Positions 1-6,167 of a stretch of DNA of 26,408 nt are shown piece by piece (position 1 is the first letter of the stretch; each line of letters opens with the position of its first letter). The stretch is from Rickettsiales bacterium (lineage in GTDB: Bacteria > Pseudomonadota > Alphaproteobacteria > Rickettsiales > UBA1997). The translations under genes and the position numbers were made by a program. Below the pieces are notes generated by a model. That model saw nothing but the letters and a program-made list of their open reading frames with translations. It made no database searches and was not told the DNA's origin. The stretch is from contig JBMSPZ010000001.1 in assembly GCA_049423025.1 (NCBI GenBank), positions 1-26,408 of the forward strand, in the 5' to 3' direction.

Positions 1-139
1 CGAATTTGATTGCTCGGTTGCAATTTATAATTTGCTCTTCCAGCTTCACCACATTTCGGGGGGGTTCCGAATAAGATTATGTCGTATCTTAATAAAATGT
101 TATCTTCCAGCTTCACCACATTTCGGGGGGGTTCCGAAT
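1..139. CRISPR. CRISPR array, truncated by the window edge: two full 37-nt repeats plus the tail of a third, and two 30-nt spacers
   Basis: Identical TCTTCCAGCTTCACCACATTTCGGGGGGGTTCCGAAT at 36-72 and 103-139 (period 67). Window positions 1-5 (CGAAT) match the repeat's last 5 nt exactly one period earlier. Unique spacers at 6-35 and 73-102. Internal palindrome TTCGG-N7-CCGAA. Orientation unresolved. Confidence 0.88.
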
Positions 140-140
140 A

Positions 141-174
141 GGAACCGCCCGATTTATTGTGGCTGTAGATGGAA
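141..174. ncRNA. Inverted anti-repeat directly abutting the outermost CRISPR repeat (candidate tracr-like or scaffold RNA segment)
   Basis: Pairs with repeat 103-139: GGTTCC(130-135)/GGAACC(141-146), TCGGG(123-127)/CCCGA(148-152), CCACA(116-120)/TGTGG(158-162), CA/TG, CT/AG, TTCCA(105-109)/TGGAA(170-174). Hand count about 25 bp. Function is inferred. Confidence 0.6.
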
Positions 175-217
175 ATGATAATTCTGTTTTACAAAAATAT
201 GAAAAAAATTAAATAAA

Positions 218-246
218 AATTTAAAATTTATCATTTTTTTTAACAA
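218..246 (-). promoter_or_regulatory. Possible sigma70-like promoter reading toward the anti-repeat and array
   Basis: Minus strand TTGTTA(246-241)-N17-TAAATT(223-218). The region is very AT-rich, so a chance match is plausible. Confidence 0.3.
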
Positions 247-280
247 AAAATAATACCCCCTCTATTTCTAGAATTATTTA

Positions 281-360
281 CTGTGGCTGTAAATTTTATT
301 TGCATAAAATTAATTACCACAGTTGCTATAAATTTTATTTGCATAAATTTAATTGCCAAG
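281..360 (-). repeat. Tandem ~39-nt hairpin-forming repeat in the 3' flank of the HEPN gene
   Basis: GCTGTAAATTTTATTTGCATAAAATTAATTACCAC from 286 and GCTATAAATTTTATTTGCATAAATTTAATTGCCAA from 325. Unit 1 has stem AATTTTAT/ATAAAATT closed by CTGTGG(281-286)/CCACAG(317-322). The loop reads GCAA (GNRA) on the minus strand. Confidence 0.7.
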
Positions 361-370
361 ATTTTATTAC

Positions 371-2152
371 TTAATTTTTGGCGTTTATTTTTTTTAAAAC
401 TTGTCGATGAGCATCAAAAATTAAAGAAGTTTTAAGCGAAGAATAATAATGAAATTTGATTAACATTAACTTCTTCTTGTCAATTTGTTTATGTTTAATG
501 ATTTCCTTAATTTTTTTATTAATTATTTTATGGACTTTAGATCTTGGTTTGCTATTTTTTGAACAATTATTTTCAAGGTTTGCTTGGACTTTTTTTGAAT
601 TATTATTTTCTAAATTTGCATCGTCTTTATTGTTTTTATTAATCCTAATATCTATTTTTTGAAAATTACCATTTTCATCAGAAAATCGTAAAAATAAATA
701 ATCATTTTTGGTAAATAATTGATAAAGACGATTTAAAAATTCCTTGGCAATTTTATCTAAATTTTGGTGATGATATTCTTCAATAAAATCAATAGCGATT
801 TGCAAATTATTAGAAAAATTTTCTGCAATTGATAGGTTTTGCTTATCTTGCGAAAGCAATATTTGCAATATATTGGAGTGGTCAATATTGTTTCTTAAGT
901 TTTTAAAATCGTTATTTTTTAATATTTTTCTATATGTTCCTAAAATATTATAATCTTGCCATTGCTGTTTAGATCTTTGTTTAGAAGATATATTATGAAT
1001 TTGATTATATTGTTGATTAATTTTATCGTAATTATCATTCAGCTCATTAAACTTATCGGTAAAATAAATTCGAAATAAAATATTAATTTCTAGGGCAAAA
1101 AGATAGATTTTATTGATTTCTTCAAAAGATTTTTGATGATCTTGTTGAGCTTTTTGATTATATTTATTTATAAATTCAGCAGATTTTTTAGGCTTTTTTT
1201 CTTCATCAATTTTAATATCTTTTATTTGATAAGGAATCATAATTTGCTCTTTAATTTTATCATAATTTTCTTTACCGATAAAAACATAATTTGTGGCATC
1301 AATGGTTAATTTTCCTTGGTTCTTGTGCTTAGATTTTCTTGAAGCCGAGTTGTTTGATATATTTTTTTGTTTATTCTTGAAAATAAATTTTAATTGGTTA
1401 ATTTCTTTTAATAATTCATTATCTTTTTGTAGCTTCGAATTGATTTTTGTTATAAAATCTTTTTTATCTTTTTTTATCTTATCCAAATTTTTTTTATATT
1501 CAGAATCCTTAAATTCAGATTCTTTTTGATTGTCATTTAGTAATTTCTTAAAATCAAATAATTGGTGATAAATTTCGTTACATAAATCGTGCGGAAGTAT
1601 CTTAAACAAGCCACCTTCAAGATTTTCTAAAAGGTTTTTTAGAATATTTTCATCAATTAAATCATTCTTAAAATTAAAATTTGCTCTGGGAAATTTATTC
1701 CTTTCATCTTCGAATTTTTGATAGTTTTGATCATTAATTTTTTGATTATTATTTTTATTATTATTTTTATTATTATTTTTATTATTATCCAAAATATGAT
1801 GAACCAGCCAATCTCTTAAAACATTAATTTTGATAAAAATATCCTCGAAATTTTTTTCATTTATATCAATTAAATGTTCAAATTTAATCTTGTTATAAAA
1901 ATTTTCTAAATTTTCAGTATTCTTATATTTTGTATTAGTTAAAAATTCTGGCTTGCCAAAAAAATCAGATGACTTATTTTTTTCATCTTTAATATTAAAA
2001 GCATCATTTCTAACTTGGCTAAAAATCTTATCGCATAGCGAGATGCAGGCTAATATTCTAAAGCGAATATTGTTTTGCTTGGCGATTTTTAATGCAGGGG
2101 TAATGTTTTTATTCTCTTTCCCATTTGCTTCGCCAACTTTACTAGCCAACAT
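371..2152 (-). CDS. Putative compact dual-HEPN CRISPR effector (Cas13-like RNase), 593 aa
   Basis: Two RxxxxH motifs: LRDWLVH (R113/H118, nt 1816-1799) and LRNNIDH (R420/H425, nt 895-878). K/N-rich and apparently helical. Adjacent to a CRISPR array with 30-nt spacers. No RuvC, HNH or Zn-finger motifs seen. The ORF is solid; the family call is an inference. Confidence 0.7.
   Translation of the reverse strand: MLASKVGEANGKENKNITPALKIAKQNNIRFRILACISLCDKIFSQVRNDAFNIKDEKNKSSDFFGKPEFLTNTKYKNTENLENFYNKIKFEHLIDINEKNFEDIFIKINVLRDWLVHHILDNNKNNNKNNNKNNNQKINDQNYQKFEDERNKFPRANFNFKNDLIDENILKNLLENLEGGLFKILPHDLCNEIYHQLFDFKKLLNDNQKESEFKDSEYKKNLDKIKKDKKDFITKINSKLQKDNELLKEINQLKFIFKNKQKNISNNSASRKSKHKNQGKLTIDATNYVFIGKENYDKIKEQIMIPYQIKDIKIDEEKKPKKSAEFINKYNQKAQQDHQKSFEEINKIYLFALEINILFRIYFTDKFNELNDNYDKINQQYNQIHNISSKQRSKQQWQDYNILGTYRKILKNNDFKNLRNNIDHSNILQILLSQDKQNLSIAENFSNNLQIAIDFIEEYHHQNLDKIAKEFLNRLYQLFTKNDYLFLRFSDENGNFQKIDIRINKNNKDDANLENNNSKKVQANLENNCSKNSKPRSKVHKIINKKIKEIIKHKQIDKKKLMLIKFHYYSSLKTSLIFDAHRQVLKKINAKN
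1745..1788. repeat. 12-bp in-frame tandem repeat (ATTATTATTTTT x3.7) encoding NNKNNNKNNNKNNN
   Basis: Read directly from the sequence; lies just after the first RxxxxH motif. Confidence 0.9.
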
Positions 2153-2942
2153 CTAACACATCGCGCATTGAGTAGAAGCCCGGTTTTTGGGCGGTGCCCC
2201 AAATGCAAGCTCGAATTGCCCCTTTGGCAAAAATATCGCGATTTGAGGCTTTGTGGGCGAGTTCGAGTCTTTCGCCATCGCCAGCAAAAATCACATTATG
2301 ATCACCAATTACATCGCCACCTCGAATAGTAGCAAAGCCAATTTCGCCCTTTTGGCGTTTGGCGTCCTTGCCCATTCTTGCCATTACCGCATTTTTTTGT
2401 AAATCAACGCCACGGCCTTTGGCAACAGCATTACCAAGAGCCAAAGCTGTACCCGAAGGGGCATCGATTTTGCGGTTATGGTGCATTTCGACAATTTCAA
2501 TATCAAAGTCTTCGCGTAAAATATTAGCGGTTTTTTCGACTAAATTCATCAATAAATTAACTCCAAGCGACATATTTGCTGACCAAATAATTGGAATTTG
2601 TGAAGAAAAACTCGCAAAATTTTGCTTTTCTTCTTCGCTAAAACCAGTGGTTCCGCACACTAAAACTTTTTTATGTTGAGCACATTTTTTTACTAATTCC
2701 AAACTAAGTGCTGGCGAAGAAAAATCGATGATGGCGTCGGCTGATTGTACAAATTCATCAAGGTTAGTTGTAGTTAAAATATGATTTTTTTCAAAGCCAA
2801 GTAACTCCCCCAAATCATGCTTATCAAGCCCCGAAGAGGTGCGAACTAAACCCGAGGATAACTCGGCAATTGCATCTTGCATAATAAGAGTGGCAATAAT
2901 TTTGCCCATTTTTCCAGAAATTCCAGAGACTGCTATTTTCAT
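2142..2942 (-). CDS. dapB: 4-hydroxy-tetrahydrodipicolinate reductase
   Basis: N-terminal GxxGKMG dinucleotide-binding motif, DFS, GTTG, and the substrate motif EMHHNRKIDAPSGTA. Confidence 0.97.
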   Translation of the reverse strand: MKIAVSGISGKMGKIIATLIMQDAIAELSSGLVRTSSGLDKHDLGELLGFEKNHILTTTNLDEFVQSADAIIDFSSPALSLELVKKCAQHKKVLVCGTTGFSEEEKQNFASFSSQIPIIWSANMSLGVNLLMNLVEKTANILREDFDIEIVEMHHNRKIDAPSGTALALGNAVAKGRGVDLQKNAVMARMGKDAKRQKGEIGFATIRGGDVIGDHNVIFAGDGERLELAHKASNRDIFAKGAIRACIWGTAQKPGFYSMRDVLDVG

Positions 2943-3017
2943 AAATAAAAAATTAAATTGTTTTCTTTAAATTTAATGAAAATGAAATTTAAAAAAAAGC
3001 AATTTTATAAAAAATTT

Positions 3018-3884
3018 TTAAAGATTTTTTGCCAATTTGATAATTTCTTTGATTAAATTTTTGCGAACCGAGGATTTACGATAATAAATGCCAATGGTTC
3101 TAAAGGGTGCATTAAAAATTTTTACATAATTTATTTTATCATCATTTCGCACCGCAATTTCAGGCATCAATGTAATACCAGTGCCGTTTGCAACCATATA
3201 ACGCAGAGTTTCCAGCGAAGTCGCCTGAAAGTCGCTATTTTCATAAGCTTTAATGGTTGAACATATTTCTAAAGCTTGATTACGAAGGCAATGACCATCT
3301 TCGAGTAGCATTAATTCATGATTTTTGAGTTCCTTGATTTGAATTTTAGTTTTTTTAGCAAGAGGATGATTCTTTGGGGTGGCTAAAATAAATTTTTCAC
3401 TAAAAATTTTTTCACCGATGATGGTTTCATCAATTTGAGGCATAGCGAGAATGGCACAATCAATTTCGCCATTTTTTAATTTATCAATTAAATCATCGCT
3501 TTTGGCTTCAATTAAATATATTTTAAGCTGTGGAAATTTTTTATGCAAATTTTTGGTAAAATTTGGTAGATAATATGGTGCAACGGTTGGAAAGGCTCCA
3601 ATCTTGATTTCACCCTGCATTGGGTCTTTGAAGGTCTTGGCAATATTTTTCAATTCCTCACTTTCTCGCAATATAATTTCGGCTTTTTTTAAAATTTCTT
3701 CACCCGCAGGAGTAATTAAAAAATTCTGCTTGTCGCGCTCAAAAATATCGACGCCCAAAGTCTCTTCGAGCTTTTTAATTTGCATGCTCAAGGCGGGTTG
3801 GCTGACGAAAACAGCTTGCGAAGCCTTAGCAAAATTTTTTTGGCGAGCGACTTCAACGATATATTTTAAATCACGCAGGTTCAT
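3018..3884 (-). CDS. oxyR: LysR-family hydrogen peroxide sensor OxyR
   Basis: LysR HTH (NFAKASQAVFVSQPALSMQIKKLEE) and GHCLRNQALEIC with both redox cysteines at OxyR spacing. Divergent from dps. Confidence 0.93.
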   Translation of the reverse strand: MNLRDLKYIVEVARQKNFAKASQAVFVSQPALSMQIKKLEETLGVDIFERDKQNFLITPAGEEILKKAEIILRESEELKNIAKTFKDPMQGEIKIGAFPTVAPYYLPNFTKNLHKKFPQLKIYLIEAKSDDLIDKLKNGEIDCAILAMPQIDETIIGEKIFSEKFILATPKNHPLAKKTKIQIKELKNHELMLLEDGHCLRNQALEICSTIKAYENSDFQATSLETLRYMVANGTGITLMPEIAVRNDDKINYVKIFNAPFRTIGIYYRKSSVRKNLIKEIIKLAKNL

Positions 3885-3930
3885 AAGAAAAACTTATTAT
3901 TTTTATAAAATCAATATATTTAACTTATAA
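3883..3930. promoter_or_regulatory. Candidate OxyR operator overlapping the oxyR start
   Basis: ATAA(3883)-N7-TTAT(3894)-N7-ATAA(3905)-N7-ATAT(3916)-N7-ATAA(3927) resembles the ATAG-N7-CTAT repeat. The AT-rich background lowers specificity. Confidence 0.4.
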
Positions 3931-4081
3931 GTGATAATAGTTAGATTTCAAGAAGTTTTTATTCTCAATTTGAGGCGAAAAAAAACTGATTGGAATTTAA
4001 AAATTTAATTAATTTTATTGTAAAAAAAATTTAATTTAAAATTCTAAAAAATAAAGTAAATAATAAATTATGGAGTAAAAA

Positions 4082-4519
4082 ATGAAAAATCATAAAACTT
4101 TAGAAGCATTAGAAAAAATCTTAAGCGATTCCTATGTGTTAATGCTAAAAACCCAAAATTATCATTGGAATGTTGTTGGCAACAATTTCAAGCCTTTACA
4201 CGAGCTATTTCAAATTCAATATGAAGAATTATTCACTGCAATTGATGAAATTGCCGAGAGAATTAGAGCTTTAGGTTCAAAGGTTGACGGCACTTTCGCC
4301 CATTTTGAAAAATATAGCGATTTAAAAAACGCCAACAAAAATCTTTCCAGCCAAGATATGGTTAAGGATTTAATCAATGACAATCAAATTGTGGTTAAAC
4401 AATTACATGAAGCCATAAAAACTGCACAAGCCGAAGGTTATGAATCTAGTGCTGATATTTTTATTCAACGAGCTAAGTCTCACGAAAAATCAATTTGGAT
4501 GTTGCAGTCTTCTTTGTAA
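4082..4519 (+). CDS. dps: DNA starvation/stationary phase protection protein (Dps family)
   Basis: KTQNYHWNVVG, LHELF, DEIAERIRALG ferroxidase motifs; GGAG RBS upstream. Confidence 0.95.
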   Translation: MKNHKTLEALEKILSDSYVLMLKTQNYHWNVVGNNFKPLHELFQIQYEELFTAIDEIAERIRALGSKVDGTFAHFEKYSDLKNANKNLSSQDMVKDLINDNQIVVKQLHEAIKTAQAEGYESSADIFIQRAKSHEKSIWMLQSSL

Positions 4520-4543
4520 AAAAAATTTATTTTGACAAATTAT

Positions 4544-4576
4544 CGCGAATATGAAATGTTTATATTCGCGTTTTTT
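4544..4576 (+). terminator. Intrinsic terminator after dps
   Basis: CGCGAATAT(4544-4552)/ATATTCGCG(4562-4570) stem followed by TTTTTT. Confidence 0.8.
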
Positions 4577-4598
4577 ATTTAATTTCCAAAAATAATTT

Positions 4599-4838
4599 AT
4601 GAAAATAAATAACCCAATCAAGCAACATCTAATCGATACTGATGAGAATTATTTTGAGCATTTTGGTTTTGCTTTCAAAAATGGTTCGCGCTTGATTCTA
4701 GTTGCATCGGCATTAATTGTTCACTCAGTTTTGCCCTGTTTTTTTAAAACCACCGCCAGTAGAAATGTAAGCAAAATGAATGAGATTTTTAATGACCGAC
4801 GAAATCAAGCGCATCTTCGCAAAGCCAATAAAAAATAA
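4599..4838 (+). CDS. Small protein resembling the DUF6356 family
   Basis: HL..ENYFEH..A...G..L....ALIVHSVLPCFF..TAS pattern, recognised from memory. Confidence 0.6.
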   Translation: MKINNPIKQHLIDTDENYFEHFGFAFKNGSRLILVASALIVHSVLPCFFKTTASRNVSKMNEIFNDRRNQAHLRKANKK

Positions 4839-4841
4839 GCT

Positions 4842-6167
4842 ATGAAAAAAATTGCAATTATAGGTTTTGGTTTTTGTGGAATTATGGTATTTGGCAATAT
4901 TTTAAAAAAAATCTCTCAAGAAAAATCTAAAAATAACATCAAATTTATAATTTTTGAAAAAGATGGCCTGTCTTCTGTCGGAGCAGGTTTTAGCAATTTT
5001 AACGATAATTATATTTTGAATGTTCCTGTAAAAAAAATGAGTCCATTTGATGATCAGCCCAATTGCTTTTTGGATTTTTTGCAAGAAAATTATCCTGCAA
5101 TTTATGAAAAATCTGGAGCTGACGGCTTCGTTCCTCGCAATATTTATGGTGAATTTTTGAAAAAAATTCGCCAAGAGTTTTTTCAATTAGCTAGTGATTT
5201 AAAAATTGAATATGAGGTTTTTGAAAAGCAAGTTTTGGATGTTGAAGATGGCTTTAAAATTGTTGGCGATGGCATAATTATTGAAGCCGATGAAGTTGTA
5301 CTTTCTTCAAGTTTTCGACAATCGCAATTAAATTATGTTGAAAATGATGAAAATTTTATCTCGTCCCTATGGTCAAAAAATTCCGTAAATTTTCATAAAA
5401 AAAATAATTTTAATATTGATGACAAAATATGTATAATTGGCACTGGATTAAGCTCTGTTGATGTTTTGGTTGGACTTAATTCTAAAAATTTTTCTGGCAA
5501 AATTTATGCAATTTCTCGCCGAGGAAATTTTCCAAAACCGCATTTTTCTCATCATAATATTTTACCTACTAACAACCAAATTGATATTATCGATGAAAGC
5601 GATGCCAGAGCGGGAATAATTAATATCTCTTTAAAATTTAGAAATTTTTTAAGAAATTATAAAACTCTTGACTTGCGACATCTAATCGATTCAATTCGTC
5701 CGAAAACCAAATCTTTTTGGCATAATTTGGATGAAAAAAATAAAAAGCTTTTTTTAAAAAAAATTCTCCCTTATTGGAATATTTTCCGCCACCGCGTTCC
5801 AAATATTTCCCTAGAGATAATTGATAAAATGATTAAAAATAATCAATTACAAATTTTTAAAAACTCGATTAAATCAATTCATAAAAAAAATAATAAGTTT
5901 GTGGTTGATTTGGGTGGTCAAAAAATTGAATGTGATTATTTAATAAATTGCTTAGGATTTGATTTTAATGTTAAAAATTATCCATTAATTAATTCAATGT
6001 TGAATAAAAATTTATTAAAAAAAGATATGATTTTTATGCATAGCAACAACAGCAATATACATTTAGTCGGCGGGCTGAATATAAGTCGAGACTTCGAAAT
6101 TACTGCAGTTCCAGACCTTCGAGTTGATGCAAATTTAGTTGCAAATAAAATCTTTGCCAATATTTGA
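4842..6167 (+). CDS. FAD/NAD(P)-binding oxidoreductase (FAD-NAD-binding_9-like)
   Basis: N-terminal IIGFGFCG, LNVPVKKMS, FVPRNIYGEFL, second IIGTGLSSVD motif, SRRG. 3-nt gap from the upstream small gene. Confidence 0.8.
   Translation: MKKIAIIGFGFCGIMVFGNILKKISQEKSKNNIKFIIFEKDGLSSVGAGFSNFNDNYILNVPVKKMSPFDDQPNCFLDFLQENYPAIYEKSGADGFVPRNIYGEFLKKIRQEFFQLASDLKIEYEVFEKQVLDVEDGFKIVGDGIIIEADEVVLSSSFRQSQLNYVENDENFISSLWSKNSVNFHKKNNFNIDDKICIIGTGLSSVDVLVGLNSKNFSGKIYAISRRGNFPKPHFSHHNILPTNNQIDIIDESDARAGIINISLKFRNFLRNYKTLDLRHLIDSIRPKTKSFWHNLDEKNKKLFLKKILPYWNIFRHRVPNISLEIIDKMIKNNQLQIFKNSIKSIHKKNNKFVVDLGGQKIECDYLINCLGFDFNVKNYPLINSMLNKNLLKKDMIFMHSNNSNIHLVGGLNISRDFEITAVPDLRVDANLVANKIFANI

Follow-up and report, generated by a model that had tools for sequence, protein, structure and literature searches.

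The closest described systems to the locus reported here are those of Cas13an, the 'ancestral' type VI of CRISPR, called Cas13e/c13c1 in other nomenclature (PMC12165695). The 13 proteins reported have 429-577 amino acids (aa) and lie upstream of arrays with 36-nt repeats and 30-nt spacers that yield guide-repeat CRISPR RNAs (crRNAs), with no neighbouring cas genes; 4 of 10 genomes carry type II cas1-cas2 in trans, which was proposed to serve the effector's array (PMC12165695). In both of its HEPN domains, Cas13an has a rearranged N-2-3-4-1-C helix order. Here, we analyzed a window of 26,408 nucleotides (nt), meaning the whole stretch presented above, which is the start of contig C1 (JBMSPZ010000001.1) in the genome of a Rickettsiales bacterium (206 contigs, 79% complete). 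The window begins inside a CRISPR array, and the array lies directly downstream, on the same strand, of a 593-aa open reading frame (ORF). We consider it reasonably likely that ORF and array are the two parts of one self-contained type VI-like CRISPR module of class 2, and that the protein is a small RNase with two HEPN domains, closest to Cas13an in size and locus layout. The features of the locus, in window coordinates, are as follows.

371-2152, minus strand: candidate dual-HEPN effector ORF (P0001), 593 aa
1799-1816, minus strand: first RxxxxH motif, LRDWLVHH, R113-H118; R113 and H118 invariant in alignment A6
878-895, minus strand: second RxxxxH motif, LRNNIDHS, R420-H425, a classic R-N-x-x-x-H; R420, N421 and H425 invariant in A6
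332-359, minus strand: best sigma-70-like promoter of the intergenic region, TTGGCA-16 nt-TAAAAT, 10/12 matches, predicted start ~325
280-357, no strand assigned: two tandem 39-nt units, 87% alike, containing the promoter-like element; a single unit in L002 and L007
176-324, minus strand: A/T-rich leader, transcribed according to RNA-library contigs
141-175, minus strand: leader segment, an imperfect inverted copy of the repeat, predicted from minimum free energy and conservation to form a hairpin with repeat 1
104-140, minus strand: repeat 1, the leader-proximal acquisition end; different spacers follow it in other populations
73-103, minus strand: spacer 1, no exact IMG/VR match
37-72, minus strand: repeat 2
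6-36, minus strand: spacer 2, no exact IMG/VR match
1-5, minus strand: start of repeat 3, truncated where the contig stops; the array goes on in contig C100

We began with the two motifs. Type VI proteins carry two Rx4-6H HEPN motifs in one polypeptide, and here R113-H118 and R420-H425 lie in a single chain. They are the only RxxxxH motifs of the ORF, as a preliminary description of this DNA had said. With 16 arginines and 15 histidines, 0.40 such motifs are expected by chance, and 5.9% of shuffled 593-aa sequences contain at least two (P = 0.059). The motif count by itself is not significant and proves nothing, in keeping with the earlier estimate of about 0.4 and its caution that the motifs alone are no proof. 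In alignment A6, which has four members and includes a homologue of 28% identity, 16% of positions are invariant. The only invariant histidines are H118 and H425 (2/15) and the invariant arginines are R113, R361 and R420 (3/16); N421 is invariant as well. This selective conservation of the motif R, N and H is the strongest evidence at the sequence level that the motifs matter.

Protein searches of 5.8 billion and 1.84 billion sequences (phmmer on the 1.84 billion representatives, and word-indexed searches with the whole protein and with residues 275-510) limited the relatives to five close ones, P0002-P0006. A distant homologue, P0017 (600 aa, 28% identity), comes from genome G021, and the family proteins span 593-654 aa. 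Among 126 genomes of the taxonomic family, the effector gene occurs in 3 of the 23 species of the genus and nowhere else. On the contigs that reach far enough (L002, L007 and, at 46% identity, L003-5), the repeat found in the window follows the gene 200-240 nt on. In G021, the P0017 gene is followed by a mini-array of two repeats and one spacer with a repeat of the same kind, and inclusion of this locus widens the gap to 140-240 nt. Every intact homologue is thus linked to an array, down to 28% identity. The preliminary description had asked whether homologues flank arrays and had named non-conserved motif R and H as a refutation; both points came out in its favour. In G013 and L006, a single deletion took the entire array along with the gene's 3' part, and what remains is joined to a trailer like that of C100. 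The truncated genes, at 1501-2250 of L014 (G013:C16) and 2754-3929 of L006, are cut at about residue 231 and about residue 380.

A protein of this kind might also lack nuclease function altogether; it could, for instance, be an effector of low complexity that a host-associated bacterium secretes and that keeps RxxxxH for structure. The composition of the ORF is extremely N/K-rich, with a GC content of 20-25% compared to ~30% across the remaining window, and this would suit such a protein, as would the absence of a family match in any library, the chance probability of 0.06 for at least two motifs, and the eukaryote-like features that had been described elsewhere in the window. The selectivity of conservation for the motif R, N and H, the strict array linkage, and the Cas13 and AbiF matches obtained with both structural models, described next, argue against it. 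We regard this explanation as very unlikely.

We then turned to the predicted fold of the candidate effector. Two AlphaFold2 models were built, model 1 from a five-sequence alignment (mean predicted local distance difference test score, pLDDT, 46.9) and model 2 from a seven-sequence alignment that includes P0017 (mean pLDDT 51.0, with residues 20-240 at 65-86). In a VIA search of 48,161 PDB chains, which is independent of Foldseek, the matches of the N-terminal domain, in both of the independently built models, were to AbiF, Cas13d and Cas13a, with very little besides. The top structural match of model 1 was AbiF in complex with its non-coding RNA (AbiF-ncRNA). With model 2, matches to 5wtj (7.3) and 8h4u (6.8) spanned residues 16-476/501; nearly all of the other top-50 matches were generic helical bundles on the poorly modelled residues 340-500. 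A further VIA search of the PDB gave nothing useful.

The array itself is regular. A direct repeat with a period of 67 has full copies at 37-72 and 104-139/140 and a 5-nt fragment at 1-5, and its boundaries allow a reading of either 36/31 or 37/30. Repeat 1 begins 231 nt past the effector stop (371), in agreement with the ~230 bp given in the preliminary description, whose 37/30 spacing is one of the two readings. By itself the repeat does not fold, as detailed below. By contrast, leader and repeat 1 together fold at -34.2 kcal/mol (z -5.1) in the window and at -37.9 kcal/mol (z -6.0) in L003. Between these two loci, the 35-nt anti-repeat segment of the leader is conserved like the repeat itself, whereas the remaining region between gene and array has diverged. 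At the G021 locus, the leader-repeat hairpin is not significant. Hairpins of this type block 'extraneous' crRNA in guide-repeat type VI systems and in type II-A, and are not obvious in the ancestral subtype (PMC13187072). Our first reading of the leader anti-repeat, as an equivalent of a trans-activating crRNA (tracrRNA), was dropped in favour of the leader-repeat hairpin (PMC13187072). A 19-nt piece at 276-294 also resembles part of the leader anti-repeat (152-170).

The locus was found in many freshwater metagenomes, and in metatranscriptomes the word shares were 0.42-0.47 for 1-420 vs 0.05-0.08 for 150-2600. RNA-library contigs from four runs of three studies, placed on 1-600, covered 104-310 (X18, X25), 111-309 (X17) and 111-324 (X16) and did not cover the ORF; the X16 contig ends at 324, by the predicted start at ~325. 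Coverage confined to 104-324 in four runs fits abundant leader/precursor crRNA on the ORF strand, and we infer from these unstranded data that the array is read on that strand. Past position 104, the RNA contigs run into spacers unlike those of the window, and the first spacers vary among populations, indicating that the ORF-proximal end of the array turns over. One of these spacers, which occurs in other populations and there only in metatranscriptome contigs, has a 30/30 match to a T4-like phage, IMG/VR contig L012:12392-12421 (IMGVR_UViG_3300011116_001105). The protospacer crosses a stop plus the next ribosome-binding site and start. Since all genes of L012 lie on the matching strand, an ORF-sense crRNA would be antisense to phage mRNA, as RNA targeting requires; this protospacer is the one indirect pointer to crRNA-guided RNA cleavage at the locus. 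No exact IMG/VR match was found for eight other spacers, one of them from a Cas9 array, and a search for self-targets found none. The perfect L012 protospacer also links a T4-like phage to the host genus.

These data bear on whether the protein could be an AbiF-like HEPN toxin, with the leader/repeat RNA acting mainly as antitoxin and the spacers guiding little or not at all. AbiF (Abi_2, PDB 8vz6) has a single HEPN domain and forms a homodimer of ~300-aa chains with an ncRNA antitoxin. Consistent with a toxin, AbiF-ncRNA is the top match of model 1 and leader RNA far exceeds ORF mRNA in four metatranscriptomes; a review relates, from Zhang-lab work, that crRNA also restrains the RNase of transitional Cas13 (PMC12737573). 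By contrast, the candidate effector has two motifs in one chain of ~600 aa and is followed by a changing, spacer-bearing array. It has no Abi_2 Pfam match, and Rfam applied to 1-2600 at E 5 detected no family, RF03085 included. Moreover, array turnover and a perfect phage match would be needless for a pure antitoxin. We judge this explanation quite unlikely.

The genome of the window also contains a complete type II-C-like locus. Contig C42 (L010, ~1-5300) carries cas9 (TIGR01865, 596 bits) together with cas1 and cas2. An anti-repeat resembling a tracrRNA and followed by a terminator hairpin lies on it too, and its end is taken up by an array. The preliminary description had called the ORF an orphan with no other cas gene in 26 kb. 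The second statement is true of the window and is misleading all the same, as the window starts mid-array and C42 has cas9-cas1-cas2; the first needs correcting, as type II adaptation genes, next to an array with a related repeat, are found in trans. On the plus strand of the window, the repeats start TTCCAGCTTgACtACA (window) and TTCCAGCTTcACcACA (Cas9 array), with 14/17 shared over approximately the first 17 nt. Both end GAATA and are followed by GGAAC, and their middles differ, the window repeat having a C-run in place of a G-run. The end of the Cas9 repeats reads TGTTATAAT, which resembles an extended -10 box and is missing from the window repeat; it suggests repeat-internal promoters in the Cas9 array, as in Neisseria. 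The repeat end is GTTGGCAC or GTTGGTAC in the relatives L007 and L003 and in the old terminal repeat of C100 (L001:38-73), whereas the young repeats of the window genome (37-140) end GCTGGAAG, like the Cas9 repeat. The repeat thus looks as if it were drifting towards the type II repeat end. Since this array agrees with the type II array in its repeat ends and in the 5 bp next to repeat 1, we infer that the type II Cas1-Cas2 serves the effector's array in trans as its integrase. The repeat of the G021 mini-array (L015, G021:C150, 1230-1305) has ACTACAAATT in common with the type II repeat of the genus, and in it a run of five is replaced by the complementary base (C for G, ORF sense).

The likeness to the type II-C system, which includes the flanking GTTCC beside repeat 1 and the 36/30 spacing, raises the question of whether the array is a satellite of that system and the 593-aa ORF an unrelated, fast-evolving, N/K-rich bystander. 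The shared repeat start, the last GAATA and the flanking GGAAC fit such a satellite. In addition, type II repeats are conserved across the genus, leader-repeat hairpins occur in type II-A too (PMC13187072), and the phage match is equally compatible with DNA targeting. However, by hand count the tracrRNA anti-repeat pairs 22/22 with its own Cas9 repeat and ~13/22 with the window repeat, of which only the first 7-9 are contiguous, and the middle of the window repeat is altered. From the promoter-like site and the hairpin, transcription is expected on the strand that runs counter to the Cas9 crRNA sense. Of the 23 species of the genus, 8 have Cas9, and neither G013 nor G021 yielded one; gene and mini-array are intact in G021, with no cas9 found, which argues for independence from Cas9. 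Finally, gene and array were lost together in G013 and L006, and no residues of the protein are more conserved than those of the motifs. Collectively, these findings make the satellite explanation unlikely.

We next compared the proposed type VI-like module with Cas13an. In both, one small protein (429-577 aa there, 593-654 aa here) carries two Rx4H motifs, and an array with 36-nt repeats and 30-nt spacers lies directly downstream on the same strand. In both, the locus is without cas genes, type II cas1-cas2 lie elsewhere (in some Cas13an genomes; on C42 here), and spacers match double-stranded DNA phages. A Cas13an3-like locus from metagenomes (L011; P0009, 492 aa) has its array 75 nt past the stop, and the window and L011 repeats share the core ACCCCCC(C)GAnnnTGTGG in ORF sense. 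The locus differs from Cas13an in its strong leader-repeat hairpin, which the ancestral subtype is said to lack (PMC13187072), and in the long N/K-rich inserts of the effector family. It also differs in the position of the gene, whose ATG overlaps the end of dapB (2142-2942) by 11 nt and which is translationally coupled to dapB. With types VI-B and VI-Bt (Cas13b, Cas13bt/X), the locus has in common the guide-repeat crRNA layout, as deduced here, and a leader-first-repeat hairpin of the kind that blocks extraneous crRNA (PMC13187072). Those systems differ in having proteins of 775-1200 aa, recognisable domains and hairpin repeats, and the effector has no sequence match to them. The core of the Cas13bt/X repeat presumably resembles that of the window repeat.

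Several results weigh against the interpretation of the locus as a type VI-like module. The window repeat lacks an internal hairpin and is unstructured when folded alone (-4.8 kcal/mol, z +0.4), whereas the L011 repeat folds at -20.7 kcal/mol (z -4.4) and published Cas13an repeats fold too. Comparison of the effector family with Cas13an, which covered one clade, the Cas13an3-like A2, gave an E of 0.39 with BLASTP, a probability of 0.1-0.4% with hhalign, HMM scores no better than those of shuffles, and a MAFFT cross-family score within that of column-shuffled controls. A gap-tolerant profile alignment reached z 3-4 and was discounted: its path ran through K/N-rich stretches and left the HEPN motifs unpaired. 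Pfam (even at E 10), NCBIfam and PADLOC had no match to the effector. Foldseek against the PDB and AFDB clusters returned only noise with both models, and the C-terminal half of model 2 has a pLDDT <50, such that neither the second HEPN fold nor the juxtaposition of the motifs is seen; in type VI effectors the two motifs lie in four-helix HEPN folds that come together in one active site. The transcription data come from Logan contigs, which carry no strand, and RNA libraries can contain DNA. Lastly, a target was found for only 1/9 spacers.

A PDB profile search with the effector and ESM Atlas features likewise found nothing, the Atlas's own model being poor. The effector family is out of reach of sequence searches. 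Several short collinear blocks with other Cas13an clades can be picked out by eye in Table S3; we treat them only as a lead. Membership in Cas13an is not supported by sequence, and the resemblance lies in architecture; the protein appears to be too divergent for sequence methods to link it to Cas13an. The miniature Cas13-like effector of a known or new clade that the preliminary description had proposed is partly supported, by the array linkage, the invariant motifs, the N-terminal AbiF/Cas13 matches, the transcribed and changing array and the phage match, and not by any significant similarity to Cas13an. In our view the effector is probably type VI-like and a new variant, with an activity that is predicted; its most likely place is as a highly diverged relation of Cas13an, the miniature enzymes that cut RNA.

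RNA-library contigs thus run from a promoter-like site just past the ORF stop through the leader into the array, and new spacers enter at the ORF-proximal repeat. If the locus is such a type VI-like module, their integration would fall to the type II Cas1-Cas2 of contig C42, acting in trans. The leader's 3' part would fold onto repeat 1 and prevent a leader-derived extraneous crRNA, and the downstream units would be processed to guide-repeat crRNAs with the spacer 5' and the repeat 3'. The protein would bind these crRNAs and cut complementary phage transcripts via a composite site formed by R113/H118 and R420/H425; collateral cleavage is possible. A more specific proposal joins these elements, and as a whole we hold it to be rather improbable. 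In this proposal, the locus would represent a new subtype of type VI with repeats unable to fold alone; of the usual repeat hairpin, the C-rich arm would remain in the repeat and the G-rich arm would lie in the leader. The abundant leader RNA of ~200 nt would pair with repeats in trans, as a tracrRNA does, or would be an AbiF-style antitoxin RNA, and the repeat would be a chimera of type II-C ends, for the borrowed integrase, and a Cas13an/bt-like core, for the effector. Were all of this true, the protein would be the first Cas13-type effector in need of a second RNA.

Compact Cas13 proteins are wanted for RNA knock-down and editing because delivery vectors of small size can hold them. So far, descriptions exist for only some fifteen proteins of the Cas13an type. 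The candidate effector seems to be expressed by a freshwater bacterium that is abundant, and a phage target can be traced for it. With 593 aa the protein does not go below known Cas13an sizes, and the gain lies in diversity and mechanism rather than in size. If active, it would widen the known range of type VI effectors, and it would provide a natural case both for how type II adaptation comes to be borrowed by an effector that targets RNA and for the evolution of guide RNAs from AbiF-type antitoxin RNAs.

At its distal end the array continues in C100 (L001:1-138), which holds a repeat end, a 30-nt spacer, a variant terminal repeat (...GAAGTTGGCAC, ORF sense) and a decayed copy. Neither the window nor C100 has cas genes, and the genes beyond the array in C100 are unrelated: a HEXXH peptidase-like ORF, a pentapeptide-repeat protein and an ABC-F ATPase. 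The array therefore lies between the effector ORF and genes that are not cas genes. In L001, positions 853-3565 encode an ImmA/IrrE-like HEXXH protein (164 aa), a small membrane ORF and a pentapeptide-repeat protein of 555 aa.

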